A stretch of DNA of 64,000 nt, taken from the NCBI RefSeq assembly GCF_022846255.1, contig NZ_AP025682.1. One strand, given 5' to 3'. The notes under the pieces are model-generated. The model was given only the letters and a program-made list of their open reading frames with translations, searched no databases and was not told the origin of the DNA. Below are positions 37,667-38,226 of this stretch, in pieces. Origin of the DNA: Escherichia coli (GTDB taxonomy: Bacteria; Pseudomonadota; Gammaproteobacteria; Enterobacterales; Enterobacteriaceae). The number at the start of each line of letters is the position of its first letter. The first letter of the stretch is position 1. The position numbers and the translations under genes are program-made.

Positions 37667-37995
37667 GTGGATAGTAATAATCAAATTGAACCCTGTTTAA
37701 GTAGAAAATCGTCAGAAGGTAAACCACAAATATTTACAACCTTACGAAATATTGATCTTACTCTTCTGACTATTTTGAAGTTGCATATGTCCATAAAGGA
37801 ATCGTTAATGCAGCGAAAGTGCTTAATCTGCCCCCCTCGGTCGGAGCCCTGGTCCTTCCTGTCATCTATCGGGCGATTAAAACTCACTATCCACAGCTTT
37901 TACTGCGCAACCCGCCCATCGGCGGCGCGGAAAACCAACTCAGTCAGTTTCAAACCGATCTCATCACCGATAACATGTTTTGCACAGGACCATAG
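37667..37995 (+). pseudogene. ybeF: decayed LysR-family regulator gene (ybeF position): frameshift, internal deletion and 3' truncation
   Basis: Frame A gives a LysR-like N-terminus (MDSNNQIEPC...LRNIDLTLLTIL) then nonsense; the -1 frame continues EVAYVHKGIVNAAKVLNL and jumps directly to PPSVGALVLPVIYRAIKTHYPQLLLRNPPI (effector-domain start), ending at TAG 37993-37995; no room for a full LysR ORF before lipA. Confidence 0.55.
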
Positions 37996-38226
37996 ATGTT
38001 ATCCGTAATGCATTTTGAAAAAGTATTGTTACAGCCAGATCACAGCGCAGAACGATAAAATGGCACAATCCAACAACAATTTTACATTTTCGCGACCGCT
38101 TTGGCTGCTTTCAGGTCCGTTTCAATGATATACTGCCAGTCGTTAATTCAAAAATAGTTGATAATTACAACAATCTATTGAATTGAAACGCTTTCCTTCA
38201 TAATTCGCAACTGGAACACGCACGCT

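Follow-up and report, generated by a model that had tools for sequence, protein, structure and literature searches.

Decay of ybeF, a LysR-type regulator gene, at the lipB-lipA locus of Escherichia coli

Introduction

What, if anything, is encoded between lipB and lipA in the window, the whole stretch of 64,000 nucleotides of Escherichia coli contig NZ_AP025682.1 that was analysed here? An open reading frame (ORF) starting at position 37667 has the N-terminus of a LysR-type transcriptional regulator (LTTR) and then continues as nonsense. An earlier note, made from the sequence alone, described it in these terms, attributed the decay to a frameshift plus two deletions, and concluded that the strain had lost the regulator known in K-12 as ybeF. 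YbeF is itself a little-understood LysR regulator of K-12 (PMC9068703; see also PMC11288057). The locus raises the questions of whether the remaining ORF is a gene, how the loss came about and how widely it is shared.

Region 37667-38018 is, almost beyond doubt, a long-dead pseudogene of ybeF carrying three lesions; it has every feature of a pseudogene that can be tested on sequence, and no observation speaks against this reading. The anatomy of the lesions, the polarity of the change, the allele frequencies and the relaxed constraint are the parts of this account that were observed.

Results and discussion

The lipB-lipA interval

The gene order in the window is dacA, ybeD, lipB, an 819-bp spacer, lipA and tatE (Table 1). 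The LipB and LipA proteins are identical to those of K-12, and each gene differs from its K-12 counterpart at eight nucleotides, all of them synonymous (8/8 in both cases). In K-12 the spacer is 1420 bp long and contains an intact ybeF of 954 bp and 317 codons, named by PGAP 'YbeF family transcriptional regulator'. The 601-bp difference agrees with the earlier note, which had given K-12 an intact regulator and a spacer roughly 600 bp longer.

Table 1 Features of the lipB-lipA region in the window
Feature	Coordinates	Strand	Remark
lipB (octanoyltransferase), intact upstream neighbour	36766..37407	+	213-aa ORF
ybeF promoter TTTACA-15-TATATT, retained	37466..37492	+	27-mer identical in window and K-12
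ybeF pseudogene remnant, original GTG to original TGA	37667..38018	+	352 of 954 bp; from alignment
Lesion 1: T4 (T5 in intact alleles), -1 frameshift, codons 36-37	37773..37776	+	from alignment
Lesion 2 junction: C6 tract + TCGG	37831..37840	+	204 bp deleted in frame
Lesion 3 junction: single TGCAC copy	37981..37985	+	397 bp deleted, frame shifted again
Premature TAG after lesion 3 (...NMFCTGP, stop)	37993..37995	+	closes the YbeF-derived frame
ybeF-lipA intergenic spacer, complete	38019..38226	+	208 bp, 1 SNP vs K-12
lipA promoter ATGGCA-17-TACATT, retained base for base	38060-38088	+	motif from PMC3946193
lipA (lipoyl synthase), intact downstream neighbour	38227..39192	+	321-aa ORF

Constitutive sigma-70 promoters of ybeF and lipA were mapped in K-12 by genomic SELEX, and that of ybeF was marked H-NS (PMC3946193). 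Both are present in the window, and a consensus scan also picked up the -35 hexamer TTTACA of the ybeF promoter. The GGAG Shine-Dalgarno sequence and the GTG start of ybeF are intact as well. Because promoter, Shine-Dalgarno sequence and start codon are all preserved, the remnant is probably still transcribed from the ybeF promoter. No terminator-like site was found by a terminator scan of 37380-38260, hence none between ybeF and lipA. Neither the neighbouring lipoate genes nor the two mapped promoters were touched, and the loss is therefore confined to YbeF and 601 bp of DNA. With lipB, lipA and the lipA promoter intact, no effect on lipoate synthesis is expected.

An E-value-based Rfam search of 36300-39600 gave no family match within 37408-38226, and an RNA element hidden in the remnant was dropped as a candidate on this result. 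Several sub-threshold Rfam matches (STnc50 and leader and sRNA models, 20-31 bits) clustered at 39185-39258, which is a hairpin between the convergent lipA and tatE; a bidirectional terminator stem-loop is the likeliest source of these matches, more so than any of those RNA families.

A separate observation concerns the lipB-ybeF intergenic region. At nine variable sites in 37537-37596 the window has the K-12-type bases, and p11A, Trh52 and ATCC 11775 share the other base. This segment is a short mosaic tract lying immediately upstream of the ybeF pseudogene.

Three lesions and the products that could be read from them

The spacer was aligned five ways (K-12, p11A, Trh52, ATCC 11775 and the window). 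This comparison against the K-12 lipB-ybeF-lipA interval, which the earlier note had proposed, recovered the frameshift and the two deletions, and K-12 ybeF did not prove to be equally short. The retained segments are 95-96% identical to K-12 ybeF DNA, a similarity well above anything that chance would give.

The GTG ORF reads VDSNNQ...FTTLRNIDLTLLTIL and then nonsense; as actually translated it is 113 aa long (37667-38008). The LysR sequence, FEVAYVHKGIVNAAKVLNLPPSVGALVLPVIYRAIKTHYPQLLLRNPPI..., resumes in the -1 frame at the T4 run, as had been noticed, and the translations quoted in the note were reproduced exactly. The run is T5 in K-12, THO-010, 2013C-4282, O157, IAI39, E. albertii and C. 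amalonaticus, and T4 in all 11 sampled decayed alleles.

The second lesion removed nt 169-372 of the K-12 gene, i.e. codons 57-124. The in-frame loss of about 70 codons suspected earlier is thus exactly 68 codons, and the short TPS-type repeats guessed at its ends are real: CCCTCGG flanks the 204-bp segment in K-12, encoding the TPS of NLTPSAIS and of ATTPSVGA, and a single copy is left in the window at 37834-37840, overlapping the C6 tract at 37831-37836. Its length varies among alleles: K-12 has 7 bp, p11A, with the longer decayed allele, 9 bp (CCCCCTCGG), and THO-010 and O157 have 10 bp (ACCCCCTCGG).

The third lesion removed nt 520-916 of the K-12 gene (codons 174/175-306 plus one base). 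In K-12 ybeF, TGCAC occurs at positions 520 and 917, 397 bp apart. The premature TAG that follows lies 231 bp before the lipA ATG at 38227, in line with the distance of about 230 bp given in the note. From this stop it had been supposed that the C-terminal half was missing. The loss stands, but it is not a truncation of the end: it is an internal 397-bp deletion between TGCAC repeats, and the final 11 codons survive with the native TGA (38016-38018) in a third reading frame.

In both length classes, alleles that are identical in other respects have either six or seven C in the tract at the 204-bp junction (C6 in the window and ATCC 11775; C7 in Trh52, ERP001 and 09-02E). C7 cancels the -1 of the T run, and the product would then consist of YbeF residues 1-36, 20 scrambled residues and YbeF residues 125-174. 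The C6/C7 variation could be real slippage or partly homopolymer sequencing error. Since it switches the reading frame, no frame is conserved among carriers, and translation of different frames in different carriers would argue against any conserved product.

The losses were then read against the protein domains. Pfam places HTH_1 (PF00126) at residues 31-89 and LysR_substrate (PF03466) at residues 116-316 of K-12 YbeF. Both are incomplete in the window. HTH_1 has lost codons 57-89, and its codons 37-56 no longer share the frame of the start; LysR_substrate lacks residues 116-124 and about 175-306, and its last 10-11 codons lie in the third frame. The lost parts comprise the recognition helix and wing of the HTH, the linker and about two thirds of the effector-binding domain. 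With the rest split over three reading frames, what remains is predicted to be unable to make a regulator.

The equivalog model of YbeF (NCBIfam NF008554; 317 positions; cut-off 277 bits) gave the same picture. K-12 YbeF scored 609.8 bits. The remnant, frame-corrected and concatenated, scored 158 bits in two stretches (E=2.6e-46), and the real ORF from 37667 only 38.4 bits, over residues 1-38 only. Both therefore fall below the family cut-off. By position, lipB, remnant and lipA are colinear with K-12, E. albertii and C. amalonaticus. The remnant thus descends from the YbeF family but would not function as a member of it.

Ancestral state

Apart from a distant LTTR and a contig that is probably a contaminant, a scan of genome contigs with K-12 YbeF yielded two useful outgroups. 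E. albertii and Citrobacter amalonaticus both have lipB, an intact 317-codon ybeF and lipA, with YbeF amino-acid identities of 82% and 70%, respectively. Intact ybeF was also found in E. coli IAI39, O157:H7, THO-010 and 2013C-4282. Since the gene is intact in E. albertii, C. amalonaticus and IAI39, the loss is derived. The lipB-ybeF-lipA order has been reported for Salmonella, Klebsiella and Enterobacter too (PMC4398509).

Two results of the scan concern the sequence collection itself. Contig NZ_QJUM01000085.1 (455 bp, coverage 0.74) of a Pseudomonas dryadis assembly encodes YbeF residues 82-232 with 97% identity to E. coli; the contig is almost certainly a contaminant from E. coli. Additionally, the scan returned no E. 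coli locus, which would fit a species representative with the short pseudogene allele, like the type strain ATCC 11775.

Distribution among E. coli genomes

All but two of 5,426 complete E. coli genomes (5,424) have the lipB-ybeF-lipA locus. The K-12 segment of the 397-bp deletion was found in 4,373 genomes and that of the 204-bp deletion in 5,034. By subtraction of these match counts, with a few genomes carrying other rearrangements (e.g. 52F4) folded in, about 1,051 genomes (19%) have an allele without the 397-bp segment. They comprise a 'mid' allele that keeps the 204-bp segment (spacer 1023-1024 bp; about 661 genomes, 12%) and a 'short' allele without both, like that of the window (spacer 819-820 bp; about 390 genomes, 7%). 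Queries of 91 bp spanning the junctions were unusable for class counts, as nearby pieces were joined and genomes with the extra segment also reached at least 80% coverage; the class sizes were cross-checked instead by the identity bands of junction-spanning and T-run queries. The regulator is thus lost, as the note had concluded, but not in this strain alone: the loss extends to about 19% of the complete genomes, with LF82, NRG 857C, NC101 and ATCC 11775 as the nearest named relatives.

With a 68-bp query spanning the T4 run, 1,034 genomes matched at 99% identity or more and 4,304 at about 93% (K-12 type, T5). The T4 count of 1,034 against the 1,051 genomes lacking the 397-bp segment makes the frameshift and this deletion essentially co-extensive, and, the T4 count being no higher, no frameshift-only intermediate allele was evident. 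Eleven decayed alleles were sampled (Trh52, ATCC 11775, ERP001, 09-02E, SCU-485, p11A, G749, Z135-6, Rb-23, NC101 and A22). The 397-bp junction is identical in all of them and the 204-bp junction in all short ones, and PGAP labels all 11 as pseudogenes ('frameshifted; incomplete; ... missing C-terminus').

These counts bear on the reading that the lesions are sequencing or assembly errors in a single genome in which ybeF is really intact. Homopolymer lengths are error-prone, and the neighbouring poly-C tract varies between 6 and 7, perhaps partly for technical reasons. However, the T4-type allele occurs in 1,034 independent complete genomes, the 397-bp and 204-bp segments are missing from about 1,051 and about 390 genomes, respectively, and 11 sampled assemblies, produced in different laboratories and on different platforms, have the same junctions. 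Moreover, such errors could not have produced the 16 extra fixed substitutions of the decayed alleles described below. The chance of this reading is practically nil, and the resequencing objection raised in the earlier note fails.

In a 20-kb comparison the window was closest (99.2%) to LF82, NRG 857C, NC101 and ERP001. These strains and the type strain ATCC 11775 we take to be members of phylogroup B2, and IAI39 presumably belongs to phylogroup F; from these assignments we infer that the carrier lineage is phylogroup B2. The short alleles carry NC101-type bases beside the 397-bp junction, and the 204-bp deletion is therefore the latest step, taken on an NC101-like mid allele. The SNP patterns among the short alleles are mosaic; recombination may have spread the 204-bp deletion, or the deletion may have had more than one origin.

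Elsewhere in the window, the region 40000-44000 (a ybeM-like amidase gene, crcB, cspE, pagP and dcuC) is 2-3% diverged from ERP001 and NC101, which are otherwise among the closest to the window, and from K-12, and its best match in the 5,426 complete E. coli genomes reaches only 98.3% (GF131, CE10 and IAI39). It resembles a segment imported by recombination from an unsampled lineage; this diverged patch accounts for the window's overall identity ceiling of 99.2%. The deaminated glutathione amidase (ybeM-like) ORF (39625-40419, - strand) is intact at 264 aa, as it is in ERP001 and NC101; the copy in K-12 HMS174 is annotated as a frameshifted pseudogene, the reverse of the ybeF pattern.

An otherwise K-12-type ybeF is independently disrupted by ISVsa5 within the gene in 13C1079T and by IS1A at the 5' end in ET245. 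These knock-outs fit a gene that is dispensable in some settings, though strongly constrained where it is intact. Two records classed as plasmids match the lipB-ybeF-lipA region. Finally, 52F4 (CM147848) matches only 22-41% of the locus query, which suggests a larger rearrangement at the locus.

Selective constraint

Non-synonymous (N) and synonymous (S) changes were counted by simple parsimony over the first 519 nt of five intact and eight decayed E. coli alleles, with E. albertii as the outgroup and with repeat and junction columns left out. The decayed lineage has 18 non-synonymous and 7 synonymous changes (approximate dN/dS 0.8) and the intact lineage 2 and 12, respectively (approximate dN/dS 0.05), the ratios being based on 398 non-synonymous and 121 synonymous sites. 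The difference is significant by Fisher's exact test (p=7.7e-4); a first version of the test had given 22:7 for the decayed versus 1:12 for the intact alleles (p=9e-5). On these counts the decayed alleles evolve neutrally and the intact ones under constraint; constraint is relaxed on the disrupted lineage.

Sixteen substitutions (11 N and 5 S) occur in every sampled decayed allele and in no intact one, which places neutral evolution before the carriers diversified. Between the window remnant and K-12, 13 of 301 sites differ (4.3%), a value close to the synonymous divergence found for lipB and lipA together (16 of about 377 sites, 4.2%).

It might be supposed that the remnant is still alive and yields a shortened or novel protein, perhaps functional, such as the 113-aa ORF at 37667-38008 or the frame-restored product of C7 alleles. 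With the promoter, the GGAG Shine-Dalgarno sequence and the GTG intact, a transcript and a peptide are plausible, and C7 alleles make up for the -1 of the T run by a +1 in the C tract. Yet the decayed N:S of 18:7 is close to the site ratio of about 3.3:1 expected without selection, and the frame past the C tract differs between C6 and C7 within both length classes. The recognition helix and wing of the HTH and most of the effector domain are deleted, and the match of the real ORF to the YbeF model stops at residue 38. A living product is very improbable on this evidence, and the remnant is better read as a pseudogene.

Mutational steps

The gene decayed through a one-base homopolymer contraction (T5 to T4), of the kind usually attributed to replication slippage, and a deletion of 397 bp between two TGCAC repeats of 5 bp. 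The 204-bp deletion, between 7-10-bp (A)CC(CC)CTCGG repeats, came later and in only part of the lineage. Both deletions retain a single copy of their direct repeat and so bear the signature of replication slippage (slipped-strand) or RecA-independent illegitimate recombination, and one of these was probably the process.

We also considered the idea that 'decay begets decay', i.e. that substitutions gathered in the dead gene lengthened the repeat used for the 204-bp deletion. It was dropped, as the repeat is already 10 bp in the intact alleles of THO-010 and O157; it is 9 bp in the mid allele, and the 7-bp repeat of K-12 is the derived version.

Significance of the loss

Deletion of ybeF in K-12 lowered lrhA 3.5-fold and raised the FlhDC regulon, and YbeF had three ChIP-exo sites in K-12 with no defined direct target (PMC9068703). 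This leads to a variant of the pseudogene account, in which the loss of ybeF was selected in the ancestor of the lineage, for example via LrhA/FlhDC motility control, and further decay followed. The deletion phenotype of K-12 speaks for it, as do the fixation of a null allele across a large lineage (about 1,050 genomes) and the independent knock-outs elsewhere by ISVsa5 and IS1A. Against it, the strong purifying selection on intact alleles (2 N : 12 S) indicates that the gene is useful in most lineages, among 5,400 genomes any non-essential gene should show sporadic IS insertions, and a single neutral or hitch-hiking fixation followed by decay accounts for everything seen. We consider a selected loss unlikely. 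The more specific proposal that losing YbeF was adaptive in the B2-like lineage, with its AIEC and ExPEC strains such as LF82, NRG 857C, NC101 and the type strain, is highly doubtful; if it were true, the natural ybeF null would have permanently rewired motility control and would represent an unrecognised 'antivirulence-type' gene loss in a pathogen-rich lineage.

Whatever led to its fixation, the pseudogene is of little consequence except for annotation, in which the locus should carry the label of a ybeF pseudogene and no gene should be called for the 113-aa ORF at 37667. Two modest points go beyond this. The nested alleles (intact; frameshift plus 397-bp deletion; the same plus 204-bp deletion) form a clean series of stepwise decay and a possible marker of E. 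coli lineages. Moreover, about a fifth of sequenced E. coli, including well-studied AIEC/ExPEC strains, are natural ybeF nulls, and results obtained on YbeF in K-12 therefore do not transfer to them. The searched literature that mentions ybeF does not discuss this null state or the decayed allele. The allele itself is already known in that it is annotated as a pseudogene in RefSeq genomes; it is old and real but ordinary.

Comparison with known genes and alleles

The remnant shares with K-12 ybeF (b0629) the position between lipB and lipA, the GTG start, the promoter and the stop, but it keeps only 352 of 954 bp, spread over three frames. Its closest counterparts are the short PGAP-annotated pseudogenes of ATCC 11775, Trh52, ERP001, 09-02E and SCU-485, which have the same three lesions and the same junctions. 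The window differs from them by a few SNPs, and the best spacer identity is 98.5%, partly owing to the K-12-like tract at 37537-37596. The mid allele (NC101, LF82/NRG 857C, p11A, G749, Rb-23 and A22) shares with the window the T4 run, the 397-bp deletion and the 16 fixed substitutions but keeps the 204-bp segment (codons 57-124), so that the window stands one deletion further along the same path of decay.

Among paralogues, the LTTR CitR (YbdO) belongs to the same subfamily as YbeF and is the second-best NCBIfam match of K-12 YbeF (182.6 bits); the two proteins are 30% identical (PMC9068703). However, citR lies at another locus, adjoining the citrate lyase cluster, and the match of the remnant to CitR is marginal (21.4 bits). 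CitR is not the source of the remnant.
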